Assembly: GCA_043812955.1 (NCBI GenBank)
Contig: JBDRLN010000012.1
Span: 12,749-76,748, forward strand
Length of the DNA stretch: 64,000 nt
Direction: 5' to 3'
From: Candidatus Omnitrophota bacterium
GTDB taxonomy: Bacteria; Omnitrophota; Gorgyraeia; Gygaellales; Profunditerraquicolaceae
Notes under the pieces: generated by a model
The model's input: only the letters and a program-made list of their open reading frames with translations
What the model was told of the DNA's origin: nothing
Databases searched by the model: none
Shown: positions 25,520-61,982 of the stretch, one piece after another
Layout of the letters: every line of letters starts with the position of its first letter
How positions within the stretch are numbered: the first letter of the stretch is position 1
Made by a program: the position numbers and the translations under genes

Positions 25520-25605
25520 GGGGCTGGTCATCAACAACTAAAATTACTGATTTGTCTTTGATCCTCTACCTCTTTTGAGTTTGACTTTTCAACATATTAG
25601 GGGTG
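25520..25605 (-). pseudogene. ~85-bp duplicated segment: 5' UTR + first 18 codons of the receiver gene at 31703-31790 (ATG mutated to ATC); forms the C-terminal tail of the glgP fusion ORF
   Basis: ggctggtcatcaacaactaaaattactgatttgtctttgatcctctacctcttttgagtttgacttttcaacatattag against 31703-31788: only two mismatches over 82 nt. Confidence 0.7.
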
Positions 25606-28481: not shown

Positions 28482-28597
28482 AATGCCTCCTTGAGCATCG
28501 ACCACAGTTTATGGTCGACTCACCAGACGCCGGTGTTTTTTAACTGGAAATGGCGTAACTCTTTGAAAGATAATGTAATTACGTGTATATGTAAAAA

Positions 28598-37016: not shown

Positions 37017-39760
37017 TTATCCGCCTCATATTTCAATTCCAGAGAATTTGTTGCAGGTGGAATTCTTACGCTCTTTAAACCAGGCAATTGAATATCAATC
37101 GGGGGTTCTTTTGCAAACCAAAGTCCGTGCCATTCGACCAGGATATTTTGCCCCTGGGGTTTTAGGGAAATTTGAATATCTCCAAAACTTGTCGGCGCAG
37201 GCCCAAACGCAATCGTTTGATTTTTCGTAAGCCAGACCAGCGGTATTCCCGAACATAAAATTAATCGGTTGCCTTCTTCGCGCACAAAACAATTTCTTAT
37301 CATCATTACCCATTCTGCTGCGGCCCAGACTTGCTGCCCGTCTCCCATACATCCTCCGCCCGTACGCGGATGTATTGACTCAGGCCATTGTCCCGTGGGT
37401 GAAGCCAATTTTGCCACCGCTGTCATCAAACCAAAATACCTGGGATCCCCCGCACGCAAAAGCACTTGAGCCAAATGCAATGTAAGGTAAGTATTTATCC
37501 CTGAATGGGTCATGTCATGGAAAAATCCTCCGTGAACCAAACAATTTTTCATTAAAAAATCAGCTGTGTCTAAAATCCTTGGATCGTTCTCTTTAAAAAC
37601 ACGGAGCGGATAACTGGCAGCCAAAGAGCCGATCGCTCCTGAATCCAAACGCCGATAAGGAGAAGCTGGCATCGCAGGCCTTTTTAAACGAACATCTACT
37701 TGCTTTAAACTTTGATTAATACTCTCCAGTAGCGCGTTTGACTCCTTTTCAAACAAATTAGCCTCATCATTATCCTTGTAAGCAGCACACATTAAGGCCG
37801 CTGCTTTTAATCCCTCAACACCCCAAAAATCATCCCAATAATAAAAATCATTCGGCCCCAAATGCTCGGCGCTAAATCCCGAAGGTAATAAGCCTGCATG
37901 GGGAGATTGTAAATTACTAGGCAAACGCTTTTTATAAATCCACTTACCCGCCTTAGTAATTGATTCTTTCCACTCTCTTGGCGGAATATTTCCTGACATC
38001 TGGCAATACTGACGCATAATCCATAAGGCCTCGCCGTTAGAATCCCATTCCCCTTCCTGAGAGAGGAAATAACCTTGGGCTGTCTGACGGGCGCGGAAAC
38101 AATCCAAGGAGCGTCGAACACGCTCCTTGAACCCGACACATAACAAGGCATTTAATATGAAAGCGGCATCGCGAAACCAAAACTGCCGGTAAATATAAGG
38201 CCCAGGATAAACTTCCTTGGGAGAATGCAAAACCATGGTGTAGATAGCGGCTTCGTAAAGAAACTTAAAAAATTCATCAGGAATCTGCAAAGAACATACG
38301 CCTTGAAGACTTTTCTTCCATGCTAGTTTCGCAGTTTCTTGATAGCTCAAAAGGGATTTTTTTTCATATTTGTTTTTCGTTAAAGGTACGGACATAGTAA
38401 TTTCTTCTGATTTATTCGCCTCCAATATATAAACGGCTGCTGCGCTGGCCATACCCACTTTACATGAAATTTCTTTTTCATACATTCGCCCGCCGCAAGA
38501 ACCAACAGCGGGCTCAGTATTCCGCCCAAGGGACTCCTGACTTAATCCCTGATGGGCTCCATTTTCCTTGCAAGACAATCGGCTATAAACATCGCCTCGA
38601 TGATAATCCGAAAATACCCACTGATCCGGAGGCTTATCAAAATAGACAAAATTTTCTCGATTTACTTGCCAGCCTAACGAATCTTCAAAGAGTGTAATAC
38701 TATTTATAAAGCTCACCCCTTCGGGGTTATAAGGCCTGAGAGAAACAATTAACCGCGCCTTGACGCCAGCAGTTCCTGTGATTTTAACCTGGCAAAGAGG
38801 CGCTTGAATCGAACCTATAACTTGCGCTTCCAACCGGAGTTTTAATTGATCCAGACTTGATTCTGTAATCACACAAAGATTGTTATTCATAATCATCTTT
38901 TGTGATACACTTGGGCTACGCGACGGGATTAATGGCTCTCCCTCTTCTGGGATAATCCAAACATCAATAGACCAGCTATCGTAATAGGGAGTAACCAGGC
39001 CATGAGGGTCTACAAGAGAAAATTCGGCACTGTCGGGAACACCCAAAGCTGTCCAATTTCTATGGGTGAGATTAATTTGGGTCATAGAAAAAGAACGGGG
39101 GATAAACGCAACGTTACGAGGGTTATATTGACATTCGACCCAATACGGCCAGATCCAATCCAGGTTATGCTGGATGGCTAAACTATTTATCAAACCACGA
39201 GCGTGCAAGACAGCACCTAAACGCAACAGCTCCATCGGGACTGCCACCTCTGAGGGTTGGGCAAAATTCTGTAATTGAGAAAGAAGCTTAGTAGGATCTA
39301 AAAAACCGTGCTTACGCGCAGCATCTCTTACTAAAAATCTCCACGGGAACCATTTCCACCACACAAAATAACCTCCCTCTTTCTTTAAGGTTCTAAAAAC
39401 CCACCATTTAAAGCAACTATAGGTAAACAAGCCCGTTAATATCGTGGCAATGATTAAAGCTAATAAAACAGCACCGTGCCAAATTCTAAGAATAGTTTGA
39501 TTTGTTAAAACATTAATGCCTAAGGCTAAAGAATTAATCAGTGCATAGCGGCCGACTTCAGCAAACGATAACGGCTTGTTATATTTAAACGTCCAAAATT
39601 TAATAAGAAAAAACCCGGCAATACCCGCGCACGTAAACGAGATGCCTTTGGATAAGCTAAAGGGAAGAAAATGAAATAAAATATAATAAATACTAAAGTC
39701 TGTTGCATTGATAATAGCCCCCGCAATTAAAAACCGGATTATCTCTTTTTTAGTATTCAT
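37013..39760 (-). CDS. GtrA-like membrane anchor fused to a GH15-like (alpha/alpha)6 glycoside hydrolase domain
   Basis: N-terminal RFLIAGAIINATDFSIYYIL is a GtrA-family motif with 4 TM helices; the GH15-type signature YIYRQFWFRDAAF is in the C-terminal half; 915 aa. Confidence 0.55.
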   Translation of the reverse strand: MNTKKEIIRFLIAGAIINATDFSIYYILFHFLPFSLSKGISFTCAGIAGFFLIKFWTFKYNKPLSFAEVGRYALINSLALGINVLTNQTILRIWHGAVLLALIIATILTGLFTYSCFKWWVFRTLKKEGGYFVWWKWFPWRFLVRDAARKHGFLDPTKLLSQLQNFAQPSEVAVPMELLRLGAVLHARGLINSLAIQHNLDWIWPYWVECQYNPRNVAFIPRSFSMTQINLTHRNWTALGVPDSAEFSLVDPHGLVTPYYDSWSIDVWIIPEEGEPLIPSRSPSVSQKMIMNNNLCVITESSLDQLKLRLEAQVIGSIQAPLCQVKITGTAGVKARLIVSLRPYNPEGVSFINSITLFEDSLGWQVNRENFVYFDKPPDQWVFSDYHRGDVYSRLSCKENGAHQGLSQESLGRNTEPAVGSCGGRMYEKEISCKVGMASAAAVYILEANKSEEITMSVPLTKNKYEKKSLLSYQETAKLAWKKSLQGVCSLQIPDEFFKFLYEAAIYTMVLHSPKEVYPGPYIYRQFWFRDAAFILNALLCVGFKERVRRSLDCFRARQTAQGYFLSQEGEWDSNGEALWIMRQYCQMSGNIPPREWKESITKAGKWIYKKRLPSNLQSPHAGLLPSGFSAEHLGPNDFYYWDDFWGVEGLKAAALMCAAYKDNDEANLFEKESNALLESINQSLKQVDVRLKRPAMPASPYRRLDSGAIGSLAASYPLRVFKENDPRILDTADFLMKNCLVHGGFFHDMTHSGINTYLTLHLAQVLLRAGDPRYFGLMTAVAKLASPTGQWPESIHPRTGGGCMGDGQQVWAAAEWVMMIRNCFVREEGNRLILCSGIPLVWLTKNQTIAFGPAPTSFGDIQISLKPQGQNILVEWHGLWFAKEPPIDIQLPGLKSVRIPPATNSLELKYEADK

Positions 39761-39781: not shown

Positions 39782-41077
39782 CTAAGACGATGGGGCCTGC
39801 AACAACCCATGCTTGTCAGAGTTTAGCCTTATCCATTGCTTAATAATAAAATAACCCATGAAGCGAAAGATAGCATTTCTTAAGCGAAGCTTAAAGAGCA
39901 GTGAAATTGACCTGCGAAGAGAATAGAATTTAGTATATGCCTTAAGCACGCAAAGTTGTAATTCTTGGGCAGATAATAATTTTGGCTTAAAAACAATATG
40001 TTGGCCGTCATAAAAGCTCCAATCTTTGCTGAAAATCCTTTTTTGAGCTTCCAGTTCCTGATAAACTTTAGTCCCGGGAAAAGGAGTGAGGACTGCCATT
40101 TGAATGGTATCTATTTTATGCTTTATAGCAAACCTCAAGGTTTCCCAAACCGTATTTTTGTTATCATCTTCTCCTCCCAAAACAAACATGCCGTGGATTT
40201 TTATTCTTTTTTGATGAAAAGAGCGAATAGCATTAACAATTTCTTCGATGGTTTGGTTCTTTTGATAAGCCTTAAGAGTCCTGGGATTAATAGATTCAAA
40301 GCCTATACAGACAAGTTTACATCCTGCCCGAGCCATAAGATTTAACAGCCCATTATCTTTGGCAACGTCACAACGCACCTGGCAGCTCCAATTACTTATT
40401 TTATGTTTTAACAAAAGTTCCAATAAGCGCTTTGTACGTTTAGTATGCGCGGTAAAATTATCATCGCAGAAAAAGAAGGATTTTGTATTCCTGGATTTCA
40501 TTTCATTGACAATATTTTCAGCGCTGCGGAAACGGTATTTGCGGCCGAACATCTTTGTGACTGAACAAAAACTGCAATCAAAAGGACAGCCCCTGGAGGT
40601 AGAAATAGGGTGCAATGGAGAAGGCAGCTTAAATCCTTTAATCAATGAAAAATCCGGGATTGGCAGGATATCCAGGTCCGCAACCGGCTTACCAAAAACA
40701 ATCGGCTCTGTCCTTCTACCCTCAACCACATCAATGATAACCTCCTCAGCCTCTCCTACCACAACTTGTCTGGCAAACTCCAGCGCCTCATCAGGCATAA
40801 GACTTGCATGGACTCCGCCTATGATCACTTTTTCTTTAAGGAATCTTTTGGCTATTTCATAACCGCGCTTGGCTGTTGGAGTCAATATAGAAATACCGAT
40901 AAGATCCGCCTTTAAACTCGCATAATCAGGCGCAAGGATATTTTCGTTATATACCTCGACCTCATGACCCCTATTTTTTAAAATAGTCCCCAGATAAACA
41001 GGGCCCAATAAGGGCATGGGTATTTTACTATAGACATTTGCCTCGCACGCGCGAGGCTCAATAAGCACGATTTTCAT
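39782..41077 (-). CDS. B12-binding domain radical SAM enzyme (class B)
   Basis: N-terminal cobalamin-binding Rossmann-like domain, then CPFDCSFCS (CxxxCxxC) and a TIM-barrel region; 431 aa. Confidence 0.8.
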   Translation of the reverse strand: MKIVLIEPRACEANVYSKIPMPLLGPVYLGTILKNRGHEVEVYNENILAPDYASLKADLIGISILTPTAKRGYEIAKRFLKEKVIIGGVHASLMPDEALEFARQVVVGEAEEVIIDVVEGRRTEPIVFGKPVADLDILPIPDFSLIKGFKLPSPLHPISTSRGCPFDCSFCSVTKMFGRKYRFRSAENIVNEMKSRNTKSFFFCDDNFTAHTKRTKRLLELLLKHKISNWSCQVRCDVAKDNGLLNLMARAGCKLVCIGFESINPRTLKAYQKNQTIEEIVNAIRSFHQKRIKIHGMFVLGGEDDNKNTVWETLRFAIKHKIDTIQMAVLTPFPGTKVYQELEAQKRIFSKDWSFYDGQHIVFKPKLLSAQELQLCVLKAYTKFYSLRRSISLLFKLRLRNAIFRFMGYFIIKQWIRLNSDKHGLLQAPSS

Positions 41078-41348: not shown

Positions 41349-42560
41349 TTATTTACCCTCTGCCACAAGTCCGGGCGGAGCCTTGTGCCACTTATACCCA
41401 ACTGCTGCGTCGTCATATCCGCGCTTAAAAAGCCTCTTCATTTCCTGCTTATCAAACATCTCTTTTTGATTAGGCTTAAAATCATCTGGAATATACGCTA
41501 AATTATAATCCCATCCTCTTTCCTTCGCGAATGCGTAAATCCTGTAAGTGTCCCCGGCCATTTTTGACGCTCCATTGGTTTCAATCAAACGCGAAGTTAT
41601 CGCCGGCAGATTTACTTCTATCTGTTTGGAGTGCGGCGACATATAACAACAATTTAGGATATAAACCCGAGTCCTGAATCCTTCCTGATTGATCTCGGAT
41701 GATTGAACCGTAGATCCCCCCCCTTCCATTAGCTGATGAATATAAAAAAGCCCGCCAATAACCCCGCCGTCAGCATGCATCTCGTCATAACGCCTACCGC
41801 CGGCTTCAACTTGAAAATAGACCGGAGGAAGCATAGCTGAAAACGAGCAGGAGGCCAAAATTATTTTGCGGAACATTTTCATTGAATCGAGGCTTCCTCG
41901 GGATGCCAGCGCTCCCATGTCCCATATAACAAACCCCTGGGCGTCAAGATCCGAGGTTCCTACATATAGCCTGCGCCCTTTCCTATGCTCTTCGGCGATC
42001 CGCGCCATTAAATCCTCATCCACAATATCATCGATTTTTTTAGCGAACAGGGCTGAGCTATACACAGAATCTCCGAACAGAATGCCAAAAATACTCTTTG
42101 GTCTCACAACATCTTTGGTCGATATTGAGGTAAACAGGTCCGCAAGCCGGTCTTCATAGTCTTTTCCTGAAAACGCGGCAAGAGCGATGATCGATCCACT
42201 GGAATAGCCTGTAACTATCTTAAATACCGGCCGAGAGCCTTCCTTTGACCACCCGTGCAATAGCCCTATACCGTAAGCGCTGTTGGATACACCGCCTCCG
42301 ATTATAAGCACAGGGTACGTCTTGATACCGTCAACTAAATAGTCTGATTTGCCTTCTTCTTTAAAGGAATCTACCAGGCTCTGCCGCATCAAATAGAAAG
42401 AATCGGGCTTACCTTCATAGTAGCGTATATCCGGCATACCGACAACGACGGCCTTGCCAACAAGATTTTCCGGTACAGCATGTCGCACATGGGCACACCC
42501 TGATGCTGCGAAAACACAGGTTATTATTATAAATAAATGATATAATTTCTTTTGTCTCAT
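41349..42560 (-). CDS. secreted/lipoprotein patatin-like phospholipase (paralog of 46827..48104)
   Basis: Signal peptide + Cys; GGGVSNSAYGIG oxyanion motif and GYSSGS (G-x-S-x-G) nucleophile motif. The C-terminus LFKRGYDDAAVGYKWHKAPPG is shared with the paralog. Confidence 0.75.
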   Translation of the reverse strand: MRQKKLYHLFIIITCVFAASGCAHVRHAVPENLVGKAVVVGMPDIRYYEGKPDSFYLMRQSLVDSFKEEGKSDYLVDGIKTYPVLIIGGGVSNSAYGIGLLHGWSKEGSRPVFKIVTGYSSGSIIALAAFSGKDYEDRLADLFTSISTKDVVRPKSIFGILFGDSVYSSALFAKKIDDIVDEDLMARIAEEHRKGRRLYVGTSDLDAQGFVIWDMGALASRGSLDSMKMFRKIILASCSFSAMLPPVYFQVEAGGRRYDEMHADGGVIGGLFYIHQLMEGGGSTVQSSEINQEGFRTRVYILNCCYMSPHSKQIEVNLPAITSRLIETNGASKMAGDTYRIYAFAKERGWDYNLAYIPDDFKPNQKEMFDKQEMKRLFKRGYDDAAVGYKWHKAPPGLVAEGK

Positions 42561-46826: not shown

Positions 46827-48104
46827 TTAATCCTCCGCCGCATATCCGGGTGGTGTTTTATGCCACTCATATCCATTGAACGCATCATCATATCCGCGCT
46901 TAAAGAGCCTCTGCATTTCTTTTGTATCAAAAAACTCTTTTGGATTAGACTTAAAATCGGCCGGAATATACGCTAAATTGAAATCCAGGCCCTTTCTCTT
47001 CACAAAAGCATAGATCCTGTAGATATCCCCGCCAAACGCCGCTGCCTGCAATGTCTCAAGAGAACGCAGGCCTATACCTAGCAGACTGTCTTTTACCCGT
47101 TGCCTAATCGGCGACATGTAACTAGTACTTAAAACATAAATCTGCGTCCGGTATTTTGAGGGATCGATACCAGAAACATTAGCCGCTCCTTCCATATTTT
47201 TTGTTAATCGGTCGATATAAAATATCTGCCTCATCGACCCGCCATCGACATGCATCTCATCATAAAGCTCTCCGGTTGCAGAAGAAACTTTGAAATACAC
47301 CGGAGGAAACATCATGGGCATGGCGCTTGAGGCCAGAAGTATTTTCTGGAACATTCTCACCGAATCGGCCCCGCCCTTACACGCAAGCGCCCCCATATCC
47401 CAAACAACAAACTCCTGCGCGTCAAGATTTACGGTCCCTATAAAGAGCCTGCGGCCGCGCCTATGTTCTTTGGCAACCTTTTCTATTAATTTCACATCCA
47501 CAATGGCCGAAACCTTTTTAACCAGCGGAGCGGGGCTCATAAAGGAGTTTCCGAATAAAATGCTGAATAAATTATTTTGTTTCATTATATCTTTGGTTGA
47601 AATCGTGGTAAAAAATTTCTCAAGCTGGCCGTCATAGTCTTTTCCTAAAAAAGCATAGCACGCTATGATCGCTCCGCTGCTGACGCCTGTAATTATCTTA
47701 AAAAGCGGCCGCGAGCCTTTCCTAGACCACCCCACTAAGAACCCTGCGCCATAGGCGCCCTTAGGCCCGCCGGCTGAGACGGCTAGCACAGGATAGGTCT
47801 TTCTACCAAGCAGATCGGTGGGATAATCAAAATTAGCTTCTTCTTTAAATGAATCCGCTAAGCTCTTCTGCATAGCGATCGGATCGGGATCATCAATATC
47901 AACACGGATATCCGGCATGCCGCTCATAGTAACTTTTCCGGCAGAATCTGGCGGCACGGCGTTGCGTGGCCGCATGCTCACACACCCCTGGATTGCTAGC
48001 ACGCTCATCAATAAAATAAATATAAAAAAACTGACATTAATTTTGTTCTTGTGGCTCTCGCGCATTAACCCCCACTCTCCTTTTATCGCTTCCGCTCTCG
48101 GCAT
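46827..48104 (-). CDS. secreted patatin-like phospholipase (paralog of 41349..42560)
   Basis: SAGGPKGAYGAGFLVGW oxyanion motif and GVSSGA nucleophile motif. The DGG catalytic Asp region (MHVDGGSM) and the LFKRGYDDAFNGYEWHKTPPG C-terminus are conserved. Confidence 0.75.
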   Translation of the reverse strand: MPRAEAIKGEWGLMRESHKNKINVSFFIFILLMSVLAIQGCVSMRPRNAVPPDSAGKVTMSGMPDIRVDIDDPDPIAMQKSLADSFKEEANFDYPTDLLGRKTYPVLAVSAGGPKGAYGAGFLVGWSRKGSRPLFKIITGVSSGAIIACYAFLGKDYDGQLEKFFTTISTKDIMKQNNLFSILFGNSFMSPAPLVKKVSAIVDVKLIEKVAKEHRRGRRLFIGTVNLDAQEFVVWDMGALACKGGADSVRMFQKILLASSAMPMMFPPVYFKVSSATGELYDEMHVDGGSMRQIFYIDRLTKNMEGAANVSGIDPSKYRTQIYVLSTSYMSPIRQRVKDSLLGIGLRSLETLQAAAFGGDIYRIYAFVKRKGLDFNLAYIPADFKSNPKEFFDTKEMQRLFKRGYDDAFNGYEWHKTPPGYAAED

Positions 48105-48293: not shown

Positions 48294-49532
48294 ATGCCGA
48301 AGCGCCGCGTAGTGATTACCGGTTTGGGCATAGTAGCGCCCAATACTGTGGGAAAAGATAATTTTTGGTCTGCATTAACCGAAGGTAAATCCGGAATCAG
48401 AAGGATTACCCGCTTTGACCCTACCCCTTTTCCTTCCCAAATTGCCGGAGAAGTGGATTTGGATATCTTTCAATTTATTGAGCCAAAAAAGGCCCGGAGA
48501 ATGGACCGCACCACGCATCTGGCCATTGCGGCAGCCAAGCTTGCTTCTGCAGATTCCCATTTAGACCTTGCCGCTTCTAACCCGGAAAAAATCGGCGTGA
48601 TTCTGGCAACCACTATGGCCGGCAAAGGTTTTACCTTGGAACAATATGAAAATAATTACCGCGCAAAAGGCCCGATGAAAATTAGCGCCTTTACTGCCAT
48701 TGCTTCTTTTCCAGATGCTGCGGCAAGCTGTATTTCCCTTGAATTCGGATTACAGGGGCCAAGTTTATCTTTGGCAACCGCATGTTCATCTTCTTCGGAT
48801 GCGATTAGTTTTTCCCGCAGCCTGATCCAAAATGATACTGCGGATATTATGTTCGTCGGCGGAAGCGACGCACCGCTTTTTGCGCCGGTTTTTGGCTCTT
48901 TTTGTGTGTTAAGAGCTTTATCCGAAAGAAATGACGCGCCGGAAACCGCATCACGCCCCTTTGACCTATTAAGGGACGGTTTTGTTTTAAGCGAAGGTGC
49001 CGGGGTGTTGGTCTTAGAAGAATTGGAACACGCGAAAAAGAGAAATGCTCCGATCTACGCAGAAATCTTAGGCGTAAGCTCTACCTGCGATGCATACCAT
49101 ATCACCAGCCCTGACCCAAAAGGGCAACAGGCAGAACGGGCTTTAAGGTTAGCGATTCAAGAGGCTCAAATTCAACCGCAAGACGTTGATTATATTAATG
49201 CCCACGGCACTTCAACACTCTATAATGACAGAATAGAGACAATGATAATCAAAAGAATATTTGGCAATAGAGCCAAAGAAATTCCGATTTCTTCCACAAA
49301 ATCAATGATTGGGCATACCATTGCTGCCGCAGGAGCAATAGAAACTTGCGCTGCTATCTTAGCGCTGGAAAAAGGTATTATCCATCCGACAATCAACCAA
49401 GAGGTTCCTGACCCTGAATGTGACTTAAACTATGTTCCCAATAAAGCCATTAGAGCTAACCCCAAGATAATCCTAAAAAACTCTTTTGGTTTTGGCGGCA
49501 AAAATGCGGCATTAGTAATCGGTAAAATATAA
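48294..49532 (+). CDS. fabF: 3-oxoacyl-[acyl-carrier-protein] synthase II
   Basis: Active-site Cys ATACSSSSDAI; His/His motifs (NAHGTST, GHTIAAAGA); C-terminal NSFGFGG; 412 aa. Confidence 0.9.
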   Translation: MPKRRVVITGLGIVAPNTVGKDNFWSALTEGKSGIRRITRFDPTPFPSQIAGEVDLDIFQFIEPKKARRMDRTTHLAIAAAKLASADSHLDLAASNPEKIGVILATTMAGKGFTLEQYENNYRAKGPMKISAFTAIASFPDAAASCISLEFGLQGPSLSLATACSSSSDAISFSRSLIQNDTADIMFVGGSDAPLFAPVFGSFCVLRALSERNDAPETASRPFDLLRDGFVLSEGAGVLVLEELEHAKKRNAPIYAEILGVSSTCDAYHITSPDPKGQQAERALRLAIQEAQIQPQDVDYINAHGTSTLYNDRIETMIIKRIFGNRAKEIPISSTKSMIGHTIAAAGAIETCAAILALEKGIIHPTINQEVPDPECDLNYVPNKAIRANPKIILKNSFGFGGKNAALVIGKI

Positions 49533-49599
49533 AAATAAGATTTTACCGGTAAATCTAAGAGTAAGTCGCCAAACAACATGAAATCCACCGATTCTTCCG

Positions 49600-49810
49600 C
49601 CAATTTGGAACGCCCTTGATCTTGACTGGCATAATCGTCTGCGCCTTGATCCGCGCGATCTAGAAATCCTCGAAAACTTCCCGAAAGATTCCGGCTTGAT
49701 ATTGACAGCTAACCATTCTGACGAAACGGACCCCAGAGTCTGTGTCGAGCTTTCTCGCCGTTCACATCGTCGATTCATCTACATGGTTAATGCCGATTTC
49801 TTACCTAGAT
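49600..49810 (+). pseudogene. remnant of a PlsC-family acyltransferase N-terminal region
   Basis: Frame encodes ...LILTANHSDETDPRVCVELSRRSHRRFIYMVNADFL with the H-x4-D acyltransferase motif. It has no start codon and runs into the plsC start region; similar to the PlsC domain of 35538..37016 (ILYPNHASDLDGP). Confidence 0.4.
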
Positions 49811-50566: not shown

Positions 50567-53311
50567 TCATGATACCAGACCTGCTACCTGCTTTTTAAGC
50601 TTTATAACCTCTTGCCTTATACCTAAGGCTATTGCTTCATATTCATCTTTGGCCCCCAATTTTAGCCCCTCTACTTTAAGTTCGTCAAAATTAAAAGGCC
50701 TTCCAAAAGTTATTTTGATCGGATAAGGCCTCGGGAGCGACTTTGTCCTAGGCCAAGATTCGTATGAACCTGTTATTAATACCGGAATTAGCGGGATATT
50801 CAGCTCTTTTGCCAATATCCCGACCCCTTTTTTGAATTCTTTAACATTCCCGTCGATAGTTCTTTGACCCTCAGGAAAGATACAGACCATCTTGTCATTC
50901 TTTAGAACATAAGAAGCTGCCTGCATAGCTTCCACGAAATGCATACCCGGATCAATGGGAATAACCCTGATATATTTTATGATATCCTTAATAAAGAACT
51001 GTTCGAAATAGGCTCTAAAACCGACAAAGAAAAGGCCCTTTCGTAAACTCGCAGGCATAGCAGCCTCAACAATAAACGCATCCAGGTAACTGCCGTGGTT
51101 AACGCACAAGATGCACTTTCCCGTTCTCGGAATATTCTCTGTTCCTAAAACCTTAAGTCCCCAGATCACCCTAGACACAAGGCGTAAAATTTCAGCGAAT
51201 AGCCACATCCCTAAAATTGTCATCCGGCTTGGAGCTAAATTTAACTTTTTTATTATATCTTTAGCTGGCTTTTCGTTTAAGATCTCATTCCATAAAGTTT
51301 GGCTCTTGAGCTCTGGAATGGGCGCGCTTTGCAGTCCTTCGCCTGGAACCAGTCTTTCTATATCGAGAATAAGCTCTTTAACAGTAAAAATCTTAGCCAT
51401 TAACTCATTCGGGATGCGGATATTAAGCGCCTGCTCTAACGCGATTATTAGTTCTACGCGGCCCAACGAATCAATACCGAGATCCAATTCGATATGATCG
51501 CTGGGGGAAATCTCTCTTTCTAACTTTGCGCTTTTTTTCAGGGCCTCGATTATCTTCCTGCCAACACCGAAAGTGAGCAGCCTGAGATCCTCATCTGTAG
51601 CGGGGATTTCCTCCATCACGCCTTTTAACTTTATACCATTAAGCTCATTTAGATATTTGTTCTTAATTTCATACCTTTTTATCTTGCCCAGCCGCGTGCG
51701 CGGCAAGTCTTCCTTTACAATAATATAGCCCTTGATGCGTTTGTAGGGAGCAAGCCCCTCAGATGAATTTTCCAACTCCCATCTGATCACACTATTAAGA
51801 TCGACCTGCCCAACCTTGCGGCAATAGTCAGCGTCGGGCACTACCACGGCGGTCAACCTCTCCTCCTGCGCCCCGCCGACACCAAGAACGCATATTTCTT
51901 TAATGTAAGGGCTCTTAGTATAATGGGATTCTACCTCTTCGGGATAGATATTTTTTCCGGAGCTTAAAACAATTATCTCTTTTTTCCTTCCTGTAATATA
52001 AAGATAACCGTCCTTATCTATAAGGCCCAGGTCGCCGGAGTAAAACCATCCGTCCTTTAAAACACTCAAGGTCTCGTCCGCTCTGTTATAGTAGCCTTTC
52101 GTGACATTAGGGCCTTTGATCACCACCTCACCCATGCCGCTAACGTCAGGATTATCGATTTTCAATTCTACATCCGGGATCACTCTGCCGACAGAACCGA
52201 TCTTCTGCTTCTTTAATGGATTAAATGTTACCACCGGAGATGTTTCGGTAAGTCCGTATCCTTCAAGTATAGTAAAACCGATCTTCATAAGAAATCTCGC
52301 CGCTTCTTCATTTAACTTAGCGCCGCCACAGGCAAAAAATCTTAAAGTTTGCCCGAATGGCCGGTGTATTTTCGGCAGGGCCAGCTTGCTTAAATTTATT
52401 CCGCTAAACCTTCTTATCTGCCACAATATCTCTATCAGCCCAAAAAGAGGCGCCTTAAGTAAAAACGGCATCTTTTTCATCTTCTCTAATATATTCGTAA
52501 AAAAGAGAGAAAAAAGTTGCGGTACCCCTACCAGTATCGTTACCCCGGACTCTCTCATCAAATTCAGCAATTCATCGCTCCTAAGGCTTGAGGTATAAAT
52601 GACCCGTGCGCGGCAAAAAAGAGGCGTGATCAACGTAATCATAAAAGGGTAGGAATGATGCAGCGGTAATATCGATATGAAAGTATCCTTATCCGAGAAG
52701 AGTTTCAGCTTGTCGATACTTTGAAAATTAGAGCAAAAATTTTTATGCGTGAGCATTACTCCTTTTGGCGAGCCTGTGGTGCCTGATGTATAGATAAGCG
52801 AAGCGATATCTTCAGGAATAACTTCGGGCCATACGAGCCCTTCGCGCAAGGTAGATTTGACCTGCGCCAGACCCAAAAGGCGCTCTTTTTCAATATCCAG
52901 GTCTAATATAACGATTTTGTTCAGCCCGGCTTTTATCTTATTAATATTCTTTGTCTGAAAAACGGCGTTGGAGACAAATATGATTTTTGCGGCGCAGTCA
53001 TTGATGAGATTCTCTATTTCTTGTTCGGTCAACTGTGGATCTAGGGGGACACAGGCCAGTCCCGCAGCCATTATGCCTAAATAGATTATTGCCCATTCCG
53101 GCCGATTCTCTAAACATAAGCCAGCGAAGTCCCCCTTTTTAAAACCCTCATTTATTAGAAATGCGCCTATCCTTAGAGAGAGATCTTGAGTTTCCCCATA
53201 TGTCCATCCCTCCCAGGTAGAGCCTTTTTTTATTTGAAGGCATATCCTATCTGAAAATTGAGAAGAAATTTGAGCAAATATCTTATGGATAACTAAATCT
53301 TCCTTCTTCAT
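50567..53311 (-). CDS. tri-domain fatty-acid--AMP ligase / acyl-carrier domain / lysophospholipid acyltransferase (Aas-like but in reversed domain order)
   Basis: AMP-binding motifs YTSGTTGSPKGV and GYGLTE; phosphopantetheine site LDLGIDSLGRVEL; PlsC motif CVNHGSYLDAF and FPEGQRT; 914 aa. Confidence 0.8.
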   Translation of the reverse strand: MKKEDLVIHKIFAQISSQFSDRICLQIKKGSTWEGWTYGETQDLSLRIGAFLINEGFKKGDFAGLCLENRPEWAIIYLGIMAAGLACVPLDPQLTEQEIENLINDCAAKIIFVSNAVFQTKNINKIKAGLNKIVILDLDIEKERLLGLAQVKSTLREGLVWPEVIPEDIASLIYTSGTTGSPKGVMLTHKNFCSNFQSIDKLKLFSDKDTFISILPLHHSYPFMITLITPLFCRARVIYTSSLRSDELLNLMRESGVTILVGVPQLFSLFFTNILEKMKKMPFLLKAPLFGLIEILWQIRRFSGINLSKLALPKIHRPFGQTLRFFACGGAKLNEEAARFLMKIGFTILEGYGLTETSPVVTFNPLKKQKIGSVGRVIPDVELKIDNPDVSGMGEVVIKGPNVTKGYYNRADETLSVLKDGWFYSGDLGLIDKDGYLYITGRKKEIIVLSSGKNIYPEEVESHYTKSPYIKEICVLGVGGAQEERLTAVVVPDADYCRKVGQVDLNSVIRWELENSSEGLAPYKRIKGYIIVKEDLPRTRLGKIKRYEIKNKYLNELNGIKLKGVMEEIPATDEDLRLLTFGVGRKIIEALKKSAKLEREISPSDHIELDLGIDSLGRVELIIALEQALNIRIPNELMAKIFTVKELILDIERLVPGEGLQSAPIPELKSQTLWNEILNEKPAKDIIKKLNLAPSRMTILGMWLFAEILRLVSRVIWGLKVLGTENIPRTGKCILCVNHGSYLDAFIVEAAMPASLRKGLFFVGFRAYFEQFFIKDIIKYIRVIPIDPGMHFVEAMQAASYVLKNDKMVCIFPEGQRTIDGNVKEFKKGVGILAKELNIPLIPVLITGSYESWPRTKSLPRPYPIKITFGRPFNFDELKVEGLKLGAKDEYEAIALGIRQEVIKLKKQVAGLVS

Positions 53312-55648: not shown

Positions 55649-56653
55649 TTAACTAACTTTTTCCTCTCTTATGAATTTTGCCGCTAATTCCGGCGGAGTA
55701 GGCACCAGATAAAAACCAGTACCCCATTCAAATCCCGCAACTTTAGTTAACTTCGGCATAAACTCCAGATGCCAGTGATAACCTTCCATTTCGCCATCGC
55801 CGTTAATAGGCGCGCTGTGAATAATAAAATTATAAGCTATATTTCCGAAAATCTTTTTCACCCTGGAGATCAACTCCTTGACGATCTCTGCTAACGCCGG
55901 AATTTCCTCCATAGACATATGGCAGAAATATTTATTATGTGCCTTGGGGATAACCCAGACCTCAAAAGGAAAACGCGAAACAAAAGGGCAAAAAGCCAGA
56001 AAATATTTATTTTCTATGACTATCCTCTCCTTCTCCTGAACTTCCTGGCGGATAACATCGCAGAATATGCACCTATCCCGGTATTCAAAATATTTACGCG
56101 CCCCCATAATCTCTTCCTTGACATTCTTGGGCACCATTGGTAAAGCAATTAATTGAGTATGTGGATGCTCCAACGAAGCCCCGGCAGCCGGGCCGTAATT
56201 CTTAAACACCATCACATATTTAAAACGGCTGTCCCGAATCAGGTCCAAGGCCCGGACGCAGCACAACGAAAAGATATTCTCGACTTCATTATTTAATAAA
56301 TCCGGTATATCCTTATGGTGGTAGGGAGAATCGATGATAACTTCATGAGCGCCTACGCCATTAGACATATCGTAAATACCCAAGCCTCTTCGGTCCAAAT
56401 CTCCCTCGATCTGAAGCGCAGGATATTTATTCGAAACCACCCTGGTAAGCCATCCGGGGGTATCAGGGGAAGTTCCGGATTCGCGGATCGCGATTATTTC
56501 CGGAGGGGTCTGGGATTCATTGCCGTAGCAAAAAGGGCAAACCCCATCTCTCCAGGCCGGAGATTCAATATCATAATCTTTAGGCAGATTAGGATGGTCA
56601 GTATCCACTATTACCCACCTGCCGGCGATCGGATCTCTTCTTAATTCTGACAT
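55649..56653 (-). CDS. galactose-1-phosphate uridylyltransferase (GalT/HIT branch III) family nucleotidyltransferase with intact H-P-H motif
   Basis: Zn site CPFCYGNE; catalytic GASLEHPHTQLIALP; 334 aa. Confidence 0.7.
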   Translation of the reverse strand: MSELRRDPIAGRWVIVDTDHPNLPKDYDIESPAWRDGVCPFCYGNESQTPPEIIAIRESGTSPDTPGWLTRVVSNKYPALQIEGDLDRRGLGIYDMSNGVGAHEVIIDSPYHHKDIPDLLNNEVENIFSLCCVRALDLIRDSRFKYVMVFKNYGPAAGASLEHPHTQLIALPMVPKNVKEEIMGARKYFEYRDRCIFCDVIRQEVQEKERIVIENKYFLAFCPFVSRFPFEVWVIPKAHNKYFCHMSMEEIPALAEIVKELISRVKKIFGNIAYNFIIHSAPINGDGEMEGYHWHLEFMPKLTKVAGFEWGTGFYLVPTPPELAAKFIREEKVS

Positions 56654-56769: not shown

Positions 56770-57810
56770 CTATCCTCCCTTGGAGGATATCTCTACTTCT
56801 CTTAAAAATTTAGCCGAACTCTCCGGTGGCACCGGACAGATATAAAAACCCGTTCCCCATTCAAACCCGGCTACCCGGGTCAGGCGGGGAGTAATCTCTA
56901 TATGCCAATGATAATCTTCTTCAATACTCTTCCAGTATCCCATCTTTTTCCTACGGAACGGCGCTGTATGCACAATGTAATTATAGGGCGGGTCATTTAA
57001 ACCTGTTTTTATCTTCAATAAAACTTGTTTTAATATCCGGGCTAAATTTTTCCTCTCTTGATCATCTAACCGGACAAAATCGCAGCTATGTTTCTTGGGC
57101 AGAATCCAGACTTCAAAAGGAAACCGAGAAGCAAAAGGAACTACGGCAATAAAACCGTCGATCTCCAGGATCAACCGGTCTTTTGACTCTAATTCCTGCT
57201 TGACTAAATCACAGAAAACGCACCTTTCATGATGGTCATAATATTCTTTTGCGCCCACTAATTCTTCTTTTACCCGTTTGGGATTAATCGGGGTAGCAAT
57301 TAACTGGGTCCGGGAATGCCTGACCTTTCCTCCGCCGGCAGACCAGCCATAGTTCTTAAATACTAAAACATACTTAAAGCGTTCGTCTTTTTCCAGGTCA
57401 ACGATCCGGTCGATATAACAGGCAATAACCCGTTTGATCTGTTCTTCAGGCAGATCGCAGATATTAGCCATATGTTGGTTGGTTTCAACGACTATCTCAT
57501 GGGCGCCGACACCGTTCATCAAGTCGTATAAACCCTTGCCGGTCCGGTCAAGTTCTCCCTCAATCCTCAAAAATGGGGTAAGACTAGGCACAACCCGCAA
57601 TTCCCATCCCGGGGTATTAGAAGGAGTATGGGTTGGCCTTATCGAATATATTTCATTGGGAGTTTCCAATTCCTTGCCCGGACAAAAAGGGCAGGGTTTT
57701 TCAACAGGCCCTTCCTGGGCAAAGTTAGTTAACTGATCCGGCCTTTTAGCCCGTTCAGTAGCAATAATTACCCAGCGTCCGATAATAGGATCTTTTCTTA
57801 ATTCCGGCAT
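56770..57810 (-). CDS. GalT-family paralog with the catalytic H-P-H replaced by H-S-R (probably non-catalytic or altered function)
   Basis: Zn site CPFCPGKE conserved, but the active-site region reads GGGKVRHSRTQLIATP; 346 aa. ~40% identity to the upstream paralog. Confidence 0.65.
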   Translation of the reverse strand: MPELRKDPIIGRWVIIATERAKRPDQLTNFAQEGPVEKPCPFCPGKELETPNEIYSIRPTHTPSNTPGWELRVVPSLTPFLRIEGELDRTGKGLYDLMNGVGAHEIVVETNQHMANICDLPEEQIKRVIACYIDRIVDLEKDERFKYVLVFKNYGWSAGGGKVRHSRTQLIATPINPKRVKEELVGAKEYYDHHERCVFCDLVKQELESKDRLILEIDGFIAVVPFASRFPFEVWILPKKHSCDFVRLDDQERKNLARILKQVLLKIKTGLNDPPYNYIVHTAPFRRKKMGYWKSIEEDYHWHIEITPRLTRVAGFEWGTGFYICPVPPESSAKFLREVEISSKGG

Positions 57811-59037: not shown

Positions 59038-60888
59038 TTAAACTGGATCTATATCTACCGTAACTATTATACCCGAATGTTTAAAACCTTTTAAGTTTAT
59101 TTTTAAAAACTTAACTATTCCCTTAGGGTCATCCGAACTTAAAAGCACCTGCCAATAATAATTCCCTCTGAGTTTAGGATGGACTCCGGGACTGACCGAT
59201 ATTACCTTGGTCCCCTTTTTATTTTTAATTCTATTTAATTTATCGAATAAAATATGGGCGGATTCTTTTACCTTATTTTCTTTTTTACCTCTCAGCCTTA
59301 CCGCCCCCAGATGTTTGTAGGGCGCAAGCCCGAGAGGCTTTCTTTGTTTTAACTCTTCAGCATAAAAAATATCCGGATTACCGGTTTCAATAGCTTTGAA
59401 AACATGATGGGTTGGGTACCCGGTTTGGATTATTATCAATTTATCGGTTAATTCGCTTAAACCCGCCAGAATAGAAAATGTCTTTTCTGAGCTCCGGAAA
59501 TCAAAATGATTCAGGGAATTATCTATAGCTAATACCCCGACTAGATCAAACTTAAAAGCAGTATGCCTGATGATATCCTGGGTGGAGATAAAAATATCTG
59601 CTGATTGAATATCAATATCATTGCCGGCCTCCACTAACTTTATCCTGGCCTGGGGGAATATCCGGGAGAGCTCGCTTTCTATTTTCTCTGTCCCGATACC
59701 ACAGTAACGTATATAGCCGGAATTGCACTCCGGACAGATCTTAGGAGGCGATTCCAGCTTAAAATTACAGTAGTTGCAACTTAATAGGTTTTCTTTAAAA
59801 TGGAATACCAGACTAATATTGCAACGCGGGCATTTTAAAGCCTTACCGCAATGACGGCAGGCGACAAAAGTAGCAAAACCTTTACGGTTTAAAAATATCA
59901 AAACTTTCCCCTGCCTAGCCAAGACTTCAAGTATAGAATCCTGCAAATAACGGGTTAATAGGATATCTCCCTTTTTACTAACCGCGGGAAAATCTTTAAT
60001 ATTCATTATTTTTACTTCCGGCATTCCGCCCCTACGGATAATAGGTTCATACTTTAATCTGCCCTGTCTGGAAAAATATATACTCTCTAACGAAGGAGTC
60101 GAACTACCCAAAACAACATCTGCTTTTTCAATTGCGCCGCGCATAAAAGCTACTTCCCGGGCATTATAATGGGGCGCCTGATCCTGTTTATATGCATAAT
60201 CCTGCTCTTTATCAATGATTATCAAGCCTAAATCCGGCGTGGGCGCGAAAACTGCTGACCGGGTACCCGTAATAACAGTCATCCCGCCTTTTTTTAGCTT
60301 AATCCATTCCCCCAGTTCATCCGGCTGTTTGCGATACATGACACCAACCGGCATATTTAATCTTGAACTGATAAGGTCCCTGGTTTTTAATACAGTTTCG
60401 ATATCCGGCAATATTACGATCACCGACTTATTTATTGCTAAAACATCCTTTATCCGCTCAATATATCTATCCCAACGCGCGCTATTATCCAGACCAAGGA
60501 TCAGGGTATTGCTAGGCTTACAATCAGCACTGGGATTTTTTCTATCAATAGATCCTGCTATAAGGGCTTTTTTCCCTTTGCGCAAACCATCAGGAATAGC
60601 AGTCTCAATCGCCTCTCCCCAGGAACAGGAATAATATTCGGACAATTCCTTGGAAAGCCTAAGCAAATTTTCATCCAGGACAGGATAATCGTCGATAATT
60701 TCCAGGATGGGTTTAATATTGCGGATATTGCTTTTTAAATTAACCCCCACTACATATCCGATCATCCGTTTAGGGCCGAAAGAAACCTTAACCCTTTTTC
60801 CGATCTTTATTTGCCCGGTTAATCCTTGGGGAACCAGATAATCAAACGGGCCATCCAGAGGCAGCCCAAATACTACTTTAGCATACAT
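59038..60888 (-). CDS. priA: primosomal protein N' (PriA) homolog with degenerate Walker A and B motifs
   Basis: N-terminal 3'-DNA-binding domain (VVFGLPLDGPFDYLVP...IGYVVGV) and Cys-rich zinc-binding region (CRHCGKALKCPRCN...CNYCNF...CPECNS) are present. The helicase motif I position reads ILGLDNSARW and motif II reads IIIDKEQDY instead of GxGKT and DEEH. Confidence 0.8.
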   Translation of the reverse strand: MYAKVVFGLPLDGPFDYLVPQGLTGQIKIGKRVKVSFGPKRMIGYVVGVNLKSNIRNIKPILEIIDDYPVLDENLLRLSKELSEYYSCSWGEAIETAIPDGLRKGKKALIAGSIDRKNPSADCKPSNTLILGLDNSARWDRYIERIKDVLAINKSVIVILPDIETVLKTRDLISSRLNMPVGVMYRKQPDELGEWIKLKKGGMTVITGTRSAVFAPTPDLGLIIIDKEQDYAYKQDQAPHYNAREVAFMRGAIEKADVVLGSSTPSLESIYFSRQGRLKYEPIIRRGGMPEVKIMNIKDFPAVSKKGDILLTRYLQDSILEVLARQGKVLIFLNRKGFATFVACRHCGKALKCPRCNISLVFHFKENLLSCNYCNFKLESPPKICPECNSGYIRYCGIGTEKIESELSRIFPQARIKLVEAGNDIDIQSADIFISTQDIIRHTAFKFDLVGVLAIDNSLNHFDFRSSEKTFSILAGLSELTDKLIIIQTGYPTHHVFKAIETGNPDIFYAEELKQRKPLGLAPYKHLGAVRLRGKKENKVKESAHILFDKLNRIKNKKGTKVISVSPGVHPKLRGNYYWQVLLSSDDPKGIVKFLKINLKGFKHSGIIVTVDIDPV

Positions 60889-61982
60889 AATTTACAAATC
60901 TCCTGCGCTGCATCAGGCTTCCTGATCTTTTGAATATTACCGCGCAAAAGATCAACCCTCTGGCGGTTATTTTTCAAATCCATAACTATATCCCGGATAT
61001 CCTCGAGTCTCCTGGCCTGCCAGGCGCATCCGCTCCTTACCAATACTTCGGAATTCCCGCTCTCCTGCCCGGGTATACCGTCAATAAATATCAAAGGAAT
61101 CTGCATTACCAGGCTTTCGGAAATACTTAAACCCCCGGGCTTAGTAATCAAAAGGCTGGCTTTAGACATCAACTCCGGCATCTGGTCAGTAAAACCCAGC
61201 AAAGTTACATTAGAATAGTTTTTCTTTTTTAACCGCTTAAACAAAAATTTATTTCTACCGCAGACTATAGTCATTTTAACTTCATTATGCAGCATATCCG
61301 CTATATCTTCCATCAGCATAAAGCCCAATGAGCCGGTAGCCAGCAGAACCCTGAATTCCCCTTCTGCCGCGCTATTTTCTTTACCCATATCTCTACCTAT
61401 ACCTATACCTATACCTCTACCTTTACCTAGATCGACAAATTGCTTATCTACCGGTATGCCTAAAACCTTGATCTTGGCCTCATCCACTCCCCGGCGCAAT
61501 AAATCCCGGACAGTATAATCACAGGCTACAACATAATTATCGCATTTAGAAGTTATCCAAATAGGATGGGCCCGGAAATCGGTAATTACAGTTACTAACC
61601 GCGACGAGATCTTATTCTTAAGTTTAAGGCACGAGGCTATAAAGGGGGGCAGAAAATGAGTGGATAAGATAACGTCCGGATTTTCCCGGATAAGATAATT
61701 TACAAACCTCTGGCTGTGTACCAGAGAAATAAATTGAAAAATACCGCGGACAAAAGTATAAGAGCTTAAATAATAAAGGGCCATCCAGATAAATTTCAGA
61801 TAGATGGCCAGGATACTATAACCCACGCTATAGAAATAAGTAAAGACCGGATTATTAAATTGTAATATATCCAAAACTTCAACTTTAACATCCGGATATT
61901 TATCCTTAAAGCCGGCTGACAAAGCAATGGCTGCGGCGCGATGGCCTCCGCCTGCCGAAGCATGGACGATTAGTATTTTCAT
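60873..61982 (-). CDS. MGDG-synthase-like / UgtP-type diacylglycerol glycosyltransferase (GT28) with an internal hexamer-repeat-encoded Gly/Ile linker
   Basis: N-terminal ILIVHASAGGGHRAAAIAL (MGDG_synth motif) and C-terminal GT28 domain (LITKPGGLSISESL). An internal GKGRGIGIGIGRDMGK segment is encoded by (GGTATA)n at 61385-61430. Confidence 0.75.
   Translation of the reverse strand: MKILIVHASAGGGHRAAAIALSAGFKDKYPDVKVEVLDILQFNNPVFTYFYSVGYSILAIYLKFIWMALYYLSSYTFVRGIFQFISLVHSQRFVNYLIRENPDVILSTHFLPPFIASCLKLKNKISSRLVTVITDFRAHPIWITSKCDNYVVACDYTVRDLLRRGVDEAKIKVLGIPVDKQFVDLGKGRGIGIGIGRDMGKENSAAEGEFRVLLATGSLGFMLMEDIADMLHNEVKMTIVCGRNKFLFKRLKKKNYSNVTLLGFTDQMPELMSKASLLITKPGGLSISESLVMQIPLIFIDGIPGQESGNSEVLVRSGCAWQARRLEDIRDIVMDLKNNRQRVDLLRGNIQKIRKPDAAQEICKLCMLK

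Follow-up and report, generated by a model that had tools for sequence, protein, structure and literature searches.

Escherichia coli Aas combines an AMP-forming ligase for fatty acids with an acyltransferase of the HX4D type, whose substrate is acyl-ACP bound to the enzyme: free fatty acid is ligated to a tightly bound ACP, and that acyl-ACP serves to acylate lysophospholipids (PMC13170283). The variant AasH36A is inactive (PMC13170283). In FAAL fusions the fatty acid is loaded onto a carrier thiol and not onto CoA, the logic also proposed for the protein considered here, and fusions of FAAL-like domains with lysophospholipid acyltransferases are on record from bacteria (PMC8460268). In the NRPS and carboxylic acid reductase (CAR) didomains, the C-terminal subdomain of a ligase is followed by a carrier domain, with a condensation or reductase domain downstream. 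M. xanthus ElbD has a ligase–carrier–acyltransferase core together with an N-terminal fatty-acyl reductase; its ligase and carrier activities have been confirmed in vitro, as summarised in PMC9131029, whilst acyltransferase activity of the isolated protein was undetectable (PMC9131029). The existence of reductase-less ElbD homologues in other phyla is mentioned in the same source (PMC9131029, citing Lorenzen 2014). No characterised ligase–carrier–PlsC enzyme was found in the literature.

The gene considered here encodes a 914-aa protein and lies in a 64-kb stretch of Omnitrophota DNA, referred to below as the window (Table 1). The protein is 100% identical to a database entry (P0001) named ‘AMP-binding protein [Candidatus Omnitrophota bacterium]’. 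The original prediction had read it as a fusion of ligase, carrier and PlsC domains, and a domain scan recovered all three with their catalytic residues intact. The ligase (PF00501) has the P-loop, the GYGxTE motif, the hinge and the catalytic lysine of the ANL family, the Pfam AMP-binding_C match covering residues 459-543; the acyltransferase (PF01553) has both HX4D and FPEGxR; and the carrier segment scores 33.7 bits against PP-binding (PF00550), for which the cut-off is 20.8. The motifs as found read YTSGTTGSPKG, GYGLTE, DLGIDSL, NHGSYLD and FPEGQRT. The carrier segment aligns with the ACPs of fatty-acid synthases and has its serine in the canonical DSL position, so that the Ser context on which the carrier assignment depended is present; Ser615 (codon 51467..51469) is the predicted site of phosphopantetheine attachment within the four-helix carrier domain. 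Across 33 homologues of 33-75% identity, K183 of the P-loop, E356, D427, R442, K543, Ser615, H739 and D744 are all invariant, and both the tri-domain gene and a shorter paralog in the window are under purifying selection.

Table 1. Features of the window discussed in the text (positions are those of the window; residues are those of the encoded protein).
Feature	Position	Strand	Basis or details
Tri-domain gene, 914 aa (ligase, carrier domain, acyltransferase)	50567..53311	-	ORF and Pfam
Ligase N-terminal (core) domain, residues 17-408	52088..53263	-	Pfam AMP-binding, 4e-83
Ligase C-terminal subdomain, residues 442-560, catalytic lysine K543	51632..51988	-	Pfam AMP-binding_C, AMP-binding_C_3
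Built-in acyl carrier domain, residues 586-648	51368..51556	-	Pfam PP-binding, 4e-8
PlsC/LPLAT acyltransferase domain, residues 720-846, H739-x4-D744, FPEGQRT	50774..51154	-	Pfam Acyltransferase, 1e-22
Alpha/beta-hydrolase, esterase-like, 258 aa	53308..54084	-	Pfam Hydrolase_4, Abhydrolase
Canonical plsC, 237 aa	49853..50566	+	Pfam Acyltransferase, 6e-28; TIGR00530, 107.5 bits, above cut-off
Pseudogene remnant of a ~400-aa LPLAT-family acyltransferase; frameshifted N-terminal ~70 codons including NHSDETD	49578..49800	+	
fabF (beta-ketoacyl-ACP synthase II)	48294..49532	+	TIGR03150, 510 bits, above cut-off
Patatin-like phospholipase, lipoprotein signal peptide	46827..48104	-	Pfam Patatin
Patatin-like phospholipase, lipoprotein signal peptide, paralog of 46827..48104	41349..42560	-	Pfam Patatin
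GtrA transmembrane domain plus 790-aa domain of unknown family, 915 aa	37013..39760	-	Pfam
Short paralog, 492 aa	35538..37016	-	Ligase C-terminal subdomain 1-125; carrier Ser185; acyltransferase H311/D316
GT4 glycosyltransferase, directly downstream of the short paralog	34219..35538	-	Pfam; NCBIfam
DUF3108 protein, last gene of the coupled operon	33509..34222	-	Pfam

The ligase had been labelled a FAAL, and this label is not supported. The domain matches MatB at 2e-55 against 3e-24 for the E. coli FAAL 3PBK, and residues 312-553 align to MatB 259-498 with zero length excess at the point where the FAAL insertion would be expected; by its alignments the ligase is thus CoA-ligase-like, nearer to the CoA ligases and without the FAAL insertion. 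The likeness to Aas, which had also been proposed, is reasonable. The ligase domains of Aas and of the 914-aa protein are 29% identical (1e-34) and the acyltransferase domains 23% identical (6e-12), with I/VP-I/L-DP common to both, and the latter alignment runs around the essential H36 of the Aas HX4D motif. The top solved-structure match of the acyltransferase domain is PlsC from T. maritima (5KYM) and its top NCBIfam match is the Aas-type model NF006386. The Aas models (NF005959, NF006386 and NF005291) are the best-matching models that contain an acyltransferase, but the scores fall far short of their cut-offs (275.5 against 1221 bits and 217.8 against 1349 bits). The order of the domains also differs, being acyltransferase then ligase in Aas and ligase, carrier, acyltransferase here; the carrier is covalently built in, whereas Aas has no built-in carrier and binds a separate ACP; and the ligase core has an extra 37-aa insert (residues 275-311) when compared with Aas. 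By analogy, the built-in carrier would do the job of the ACP that is bound by Aas.

The nearest known relatives of the protein are of the ElbD type and not Aas. Residues 10-911 align end to end (30% identity, 6e-134) with an acidobacterial protein, L011, that has the same architecture as M. xanthus ElbD; the ligase–carrier–acyltransferase core is in the same order in both and the 37-aa ligase insert is common to the two. Such an alignment would fit orthology with ElbD and a role in the making of alkyl ether lipids, a reading that is implicit in the count of ‘ElbD homologues’ in a Black Sea metagenome survey, where they are reported for 93 of 267 Omnitrophota genomes from euxinic water (PMC11868695). 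The defining reductase (NAD_binding_4 / Sterile) is, however, present in L011 but absent from the 914-aa protein (Pfam), from all 120 Omnitrophota homologues listed and from every scanned ORF of the 64-kb window, and no genes of the elbB (phosphohydrolase-like) or elbE (epimerase-like) type adjoin the tri-domain gene as they would in an elb operon. An ether-lipid role is made unlikely by these two absences, and Pontiella strains that have ElbD homologues make no ether lipids (PMC11868695); orthology with ElbD in this sense is considered very unlikely. The protein has an ElbD-like design that lacks only the reductase domain. This architecture was found in 328 diverged clusters at E<=1e-30 and in at least five other phyla, with examples from Bacteroidota, Gammaproteobacteria, Planctomycetota, Acidobacteriota and Nitrosomonas. 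The tri-domain design is widespread as well as previously noticed, so the gene itself is fairly ordinary.

It is considered probable, if by no great distance, that the 914-aa protein is a self-contained enzyme for the activation and transfer of fatty acids, ElbD-like without the reductase and acting in the manner of Aas; the most likely activity, as predicted from its sequence, is ATP-dependent re-esterification of fatty acids into a lyso- or glycolipid. The ligase, of the CoA-ligase type, would adenylate a free long-chain fatty acid with ATP and would attach the acyl group, as a thioester, to the phosphopantetheine arm on Ser615 of its own carrier. The PlsC-type acyltransferase (H739/D744), which may be held at the membrane behind an amphipathic helix, would then pass the acyl chain on from the carrier to a hydroxyl on a lipid; the likeliest acceptor is a lysophospholipid, and a lyso-glycolipid is a possible one. 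Several points count against the Aas-like model: acyltransferase activity was undetectable in isolated ElbD, the scores against the Aas models are low, a ligase that is CoA-ligase-like might also make acyl-CoA, and with fabF and a canonical plsC present in the genome, salvage would not be obligatory.

The tri-domain gene has an esterase gene, GAPDH, plsC and fabF as neighbours. The start of the tri-domain gene is overlapped by 4 bp by the esterase gene, the product of which has esterases as its top solved-structure matches, and plsC abuts the tri-domain gene in convergent orientation. The esterase shows 85% identity to the N-terminal domain of ~1160-aa homologues in which it is joined to the tri-domain protein, and 41-44% to the hydrolase domain at the C-terminal end of GT4-hydrolase fusions; some relatives thus have the esterase as part of the tri-domain protein, others as part of GT4. 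The position of the gene among lipid genes, with fabF and plsC close by, could also suggest that the enzyme carries out the first acylation of glycerol-3-phosphate (or dihydroxyacetone-phosphate) using exogenous fatty acids, replacing or supplementing PlsB or PlsX/PlsY, with the neighbouring PlsC performing the second. Glycerol-3-phosphate acyltransferases are among the Foldseek matches, and putative GNPAT (dihydroxyacetone-phosphate acyltransferase) domains have been described among ElbD, MXAN_1676 and MXAN_1675 (PMC9131029), but the acyltransferase scores best against Aas-type and lysophosphatidate-acyltransferase models and not against those for glycerol-3-phosphate acyltransferases, and this reading is judged to be very unlikely indeed.

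Two secreted patatins had been proposed to work with the acyltransferases as a system for lysolipid generation and re-acylation. Both do belong to the Patatin family and have lipoprotein-type signal peptides, the last residue of each being a lipobox Cys (AASGC and AIQGC), and in the Aas-like model these exported lipases could supply lysolipids and free fatty acids. The evidence for the functional link is recurrent proximity, in four of five related loci (these loci sample the family and do not amount to a census of genomes). Since the patatins are lipoproteins and exported, whatever they release would need to pass the inner membrane. The lplT gene of E. coli overlaps aas, whereas no gene for an LplT-like lysophospholipid flippase, and no MFS gene of any kind, adjoins the tri-domain gene; the only MFS gene in the window is ~30 kb away.

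The short paralog aligns to residues 442-906 of the 914-aa protein (39% identity over 482 aa, 1e-96) and starts exactly at the ligase hinge, which bears out the view that it retains the C-terminal end of the ligase together with the carrier and PlsC domains. It is not a piece of a longer gene split by assembly: the ORF upstream is intact and unrelated, no remnant of the ligase N-terminal core was found elsewhere in the 64-kb window, and the family comprises more than 100 orthologous clusters, all of ~485-493 aa and with a common start. Nor is it a decaying gene, as its dN/dS is 0.16-0.22 and its catalytic residues are invariant; the ligase remnant is itself under purifying selection, with 71% mean pairwise identity among orthologues. 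The adenylation lysine, invariant in full-length proteins, is replaced in 3 of 20 orthologues and also in Chlamydiota and other short forms, and in short forms it is thus dispensable. An AlphaFold model of the short paralog (pLDDT 76) was matched by Foldseek to PlsC (TM-score 0.63 for the T. maritima protein), to ligase C-terminal subdomains and to the adenylation-carrier didomains of CAR, LgrA, EntF and McyG. The order of ligase C-terminal subdomain and carrier is that of the NRPS and CAR didomains; in contrast to these, the short paralog is entirely without a ligase core, and a membrane lipid acyltransferase is found where they have the condensation or reductase domain. Its acyltransferase domain, too, scores best against the NCBIfam Aas-type models and can be aligned with that of E. 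coli Aas, H36 and the I/VP-I/L-DP motif included.

A further acyltransferase sequence, upstream of plsC, is a true pseudogene, as had been suggested. Positions 49600-49800 of the + strand read ...ENFPKDSGLILTANHSDETDPRV..., with a weak Pfam Acyltransferase match (0.008, below the cut-off). Relatives have an intact acyltransferase whose N-terminus matches the fragment (75% identity over 65 aa, 1e-37), and L005, a 97% relative, retains a different deletion derivative. This parent acyltransferase, which shares only ~24% identity with the acyltransferase domain of the tri-domain protein, belongs to a separate lineage, so that the fragment is no copy of plsC or of one of the two paralogs. The proposal of repeated duplication and decay of acyltransferase modules fits only this fragment, the short paralog being a stable family.

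The short paralog sits in a conserved operon with the GtrA-fusion gene and a glycolipid-synthase-like GT4. The GtrA-fusion gene is upstream, with a 4-bp overlap and translational coupling, and L002, L006 and the P0181 locus have the same adjacency. Its 790-aa domain gave no sequence match in Pfam, in NCBIfam or among solved structures, and the pLDDT of a single-sequence AlphaFold model of this domain, at 35, is too low for the model to be used. The top NCBIfam match of the GT4 protein is alpha-monoglucosyl-diacylglycerol synthase (140 bits, below the 400-bit cut-off), and GT4 orthologues that are 77-80% identical bear a C-terminal alpha/beta-hydrolase domain. In the window as in L002 and L006, the tri-domain gene is separated from the short paralog by 6-14 kb, and 16 contig sizes are common to the homologue lists of the two proteins.

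This operon points to a glycolipid rather than a phospholipid as the acceptor. Both paralogs might then belong to one dedicated glycolipid or lipoglycan pathway, that is, to specialised lipid synthesis and not to general phospholipid repair: GT4 would make a lipid of the glycosyl-diacylglycerol type, the esterase would remove or exchange an acyl chain, and the acyltransferases would add one particular fatty acid, which the ligase of the tri-domain protein has activated, to the sugar or glycerol of the glycolipid. The coupling of the short paralog with the GtrA-fusion and GT4 genes, the gene order kept in the three related loci and the fusion of the same esterase subfamily to GT4 or to the tri-domain protein all fit such a pathway, as does the recovery by Foldseek of PatA, the mannose acyltransferase of phosphatidylinositol mannosides. 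The GT4 match is nonetheless far below its cut-off, the tri-domain gene of the window is beside fabF and plsC and not GT4, and in L004, a more distant PVC-group relative, the tri-domain gene is alone among unrelated genes; this pathway is regarded as credible but on the unlikely side. Under the favoured Aas-like model, the tri-domain gene would be part of a conserved Omnitrophota lipid-remodelling set that also includes the esterase, the hinge-truncated paralog, the glycolipid-synthase-like GT4, the GtrA-fusion protein and the patatins.

A more speculative proposal, and a rather improbable one, is that esterase, tri-domain enzyme and hinge-truncated paralog work together in a single machine for acyl exchange. 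In this scheme the esterase would strip a chain from a donor lipid, possibly of prey or host, or from a patatin-made lysolipid; the single ligase core would re-activate this chain and load both its own carrier and, in a putative trans reaction, that of the short paralog, whose retained ligase C-terminal subdomain would be a docking element; and the two acyltransferase domains would hand it to two different acceptors, one of them a phospholipid and the other the glycolipid that GT4 produces. The start of the short paralog at the hinge, its selected ligase remnant and the dispensable adenylation lysine are consistent with this proposal. If it is true, the four-domain fusion relatives would represent a complete deacylation-reacylation (Lands-type) cycle in a single polypeptide.

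Environmental surveys take BLAST hits to ElbD as a marker of ether-lipid capacity, for which Omnitrophota score high. As the Omnitrophota proteins examined here are without the reductase and have an Aas-type look, counts based on ElbD probably overstate the potential of these bacteria to make ether lipids. The shortened sister gene and the fused helper enzymes provide a useful lead, and the esterase fusions, the GT4 link and the hinge-truncated paralog together offer a concrete hypothesis of lipid remodelling in an uncultured phylum.

The 914-amino acid ('tri-domain') protein is a 100% match to the NCBI entry 'AMP-binding protein [Candidatus Omnitrophota bacterium]'. A Pfam scan resolved four domains, in agreement with the ligase, embedded carrier and C-terminal acyltransferase originally predicted, and every motif quoted in that prediction was found in the translation. 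In alignment with fatty-acid-synthase ACPs from mitochondria and bacteria, the carrier segment places its DLGIDSL opposite their DLGLDSL, and thus the context of the serine is conserved. Across an alignment of 33 homologues (33–75% identity) the ligase P-loop K183, E356, D427, hinge R442 and adenylation lysine K543 are invariant, as are carrier Ser615 and acyltransferase H739/D744. The ligase had been labelled a FAAL, a label that is not supported: its top relatives of solved structure are CoA ligases (MatB at 2e-55, next 4-coumarate ligases, luciferases and FadD enzymes), against only 3e-24 for the E. coli FAAL 3PBK, and residues 312–553 align to MatB 259–498 with no length excess where the FAAL-specific insertion of ~20 amino acids (FAAL features as defined in PMC8460268) is expected. 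A 37-amino acid insert (residues 275–311), missing in MatB and Aas, is common to ElbD-type proteins.

Features and their positions (in the window unless a related locus is named; (-), reverse strand)
Feature	Position	Length or match
Tri-domain protein	50567..53311(-)	914 aa
AMP-binding	residues 17-408 of tri-domain protein	Pfam 4e-83
AMP-binding_C	residues 459-543 of tri-domain protein	Pfam
PP-binding	residues 586-648 of tri-domain protein	Pfam 4e-8
Acyltransferase	residues 720-846 of tri-domain protein	Pfam 1e-22
Short paralog	35538..37016(-)	492 aa
GtrA-fusion	37013..39760(-)	915 aa
B12-binding radical SAM enzyme	39782..41077(-)	
DUF3108 protein, end of short paralog's operon	33509..34222(-)	
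Second DUF3108 protein	30034..30738(-)	
Acyltransferase remnant	49600-49800	
MGDG_synth-family glycosyltransferase	60873..61982(-)	
Receiver-glycogen phosphorylase	25566..28505(-)	979 aa
GalT-like tandem paralogs	55649..56653 + 56770..57810(-)	
Acyltransferase-Glyco_hydro_1 fusion	L002 12748..14670	640 aa
IS200-type Y1 transposase	L005 4831..5487	
Archaeal-binned tri-domain homologue	L016 1377..3815	

E. coli Aas holds an ACP tightly, joins a fatty acid to it and re-acylates lysophospholipids with the product, for which its His36 is essential (PMC13170283). The proposed analogy with Aas is a fair account of the probable working of the tri-domain protein, since in NCBIfam the top-scoring models for the acyltransferase domain of either paralog are of Aas type, and both domains align to that of Aas around His36, but it does not extend to family membership; the ACP of Aas is a separate protein, whereas here the carrier is built in. 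A second comparison is with ElbD, the ether-lipid enzyme of M. xanthus, whose ligase and carrier activities were demonstrated in vitro (summarised in PMC9131029). Among the matches listed in a genome scan, an acidobacterial protein of 1468 amino acids has the ElbD architecture (reductase, ligase, carrier, acyltransferase), and the tri-domain protein aligns end to end with its residues 561–1436 (30% identity, 6e-134). The ligase–carrier–acyltransferase part and the 37-amino acid insert are common to both, but the tri-domain protein lacks the reductase domain, which was found in 0 of the 120 Omnitrophota homologues among the matches listed; with no reductase, an ether-lipid role is unlikely. Most likely, the protein captures a free fatty acid on its built-in carrier in an ATP-dependent step, and from there the acyl group would be passed to a lyso-lipid, the candidate acceptor being a phospholipid or a glycolipid.

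The architecture is common and has already been noticed, though it is biochemically uncharacterised, and the gene is another member of this known kind. 'ElbD-like homologues' without the reductase domain are recorded from other phyla (PMC9131029), and in a Black Sea survey (PMC11868695) 93 of 267 Omnitrophota genomes were counted as having ElbD homologues. The carrier–acyltransferase half, used in a full profile search, returned 328 clusters at E≤1e-30 (50%-identity level), most of which are 860–940 amino acids long and are matched at their C-terminus. Among the matches listed, genomes assigned to Bacteroidales, Gammaproteobacteria, Planctomycetota and Nitrosomonas also encode this three-domain protein. 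Variants from the profile search (proteins P0263, P0310 and P0328) have three or two carriers in tandem, or a pair of acyltransferase domains preceded by a single ligase and a single carrier. Tri-domain homologues also lie on contigs that were binned as archaea, of the Methanosarcinales and Thermoproteota (in locus L016, and protein P0323), through either horizontal transfer or mis-binning.

The short paralog aligns to tri-domain residues 442–906 at 39% identity (ligase C-terminal subdomain 40%, carrier 47%, acyltransferase 42%), which bears out its description as the end of a ligase plus ACP-PlsC, and it starts exactly at the hinge motif dividing the two ligase subdomains. It had been read as a decaying gene, a reading that is ruled out: more than 100 clusters (73–88% identity) share its start and a length of ~485–493 amino acids, Ser185, H311, D316 and FPEG are invariant in its orthologues, and its dN/dS of 0.16–0.22 equals that of the tri-domain gene. 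It is a stable architecture. The ligase remnant retains 71% mean pairwise identity, and 3 of 20 orthologues have another residue in place of the adenylation lysine, which is invariant in full-length proteins. An AlphaFold model (pLDDT 76) matches T. maritima PlsC, adenylation–carrier didomains and CoA-ligase C-terminal subdomains, the last at ~3 Å over 110–120 residues. Hinge-truncated forms are also found in one Chlamydiota genome and elsewhere.

Decay was correctly recognized in the PlsC fragment at 49600–49810, although it belongs to a third lineage. The frame shares 75% identity (1e-37) with the N-terminal part of an acyltransferase intact in relatives (~400 amino acids, pieced from the overlapping proteins P0403 and P0405), but only ~24% with the acyltransferase domain of the tri-domain protein. 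In the 97%-identical locus L005 the fragment's first ~20 codons are present as in the window, the middle of the gene is gone, and its last 88 codons, missing from the window, remain. The two thus hold different deletion remnants, and the fragment is a genuine pseudogene. L005 also has a transposase gene, absent from the window, between fmt and the GalT-like genes.

Translational coupling connects the short paralog to genes for the GtrA-fusion, a GT4 glycosyltransferase (best model alpha-monoglucosyl-diacylglycerol synthase, below cut-off) and a DUF3108 protein, and this order is repeated in L002 (the 72% relative), L006 and the P0181 locus. The GtrA-fusion gene always adjoins the short paralog in relatives; behind its N-terminal GtrA transmembrane domain lies a 790-amino acid domain with no match in Pfam, NCBIfam or solved-structure sequences, and with only a beta/helical/beta pattern in a poor single-sequence model. 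The radical SAM enzyme heading the operon best matches BchE, HpnJ and a 'lipid biosynthesis B12/radical SAM' model, all far below cut-off, and its gene is absent from the corresponding position in L002 and L006. The second DUF3108 gene lies 3 kb off, past two sensor-kinase genes. Elsewhere in the window are a second glycolipid-type glycosyltransferase (best NCBIfam match diglucosyl-diacylglycerol synthase, below cut-off), a response-regulator receiver domain joined N-terminally to a glycogen phosphorylase, which fuses signalling directly to catabolism in an unusual manner, and tandem GalT-like/HIT-fold nucleotidyltransferases (DUF4921/DUF4931), a pair also present in L005.

An esterase-like alpha/beta hydrolase is the product of the gene that overlaps the start of the tri-domain gene. 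In some relatives this domain is fused N-terminally to the tri-domain protein (85% identity to the separate esterase), and elsewhere another member of its subfamily (41–44% identity) forms the C-terminal domain of the GT4 orthologue adjoining the short paralog; these alternative fusions link both acyltransferase loci to a single pathway. In 4 of 5 related loci, patatin genes are found no more than ~10 kb away, and both patatins of the window carry lipoprotein signal peptides. In L002 the tri-domain gene is followed by another lipid/sugar fusion, of an acyltransferase domain to Glyco_hydro_1. More interesting as leads than the tri-domain gene itself are its conserved, hinge-truncated paralog and the fusions that involve the esterase and the GT4.
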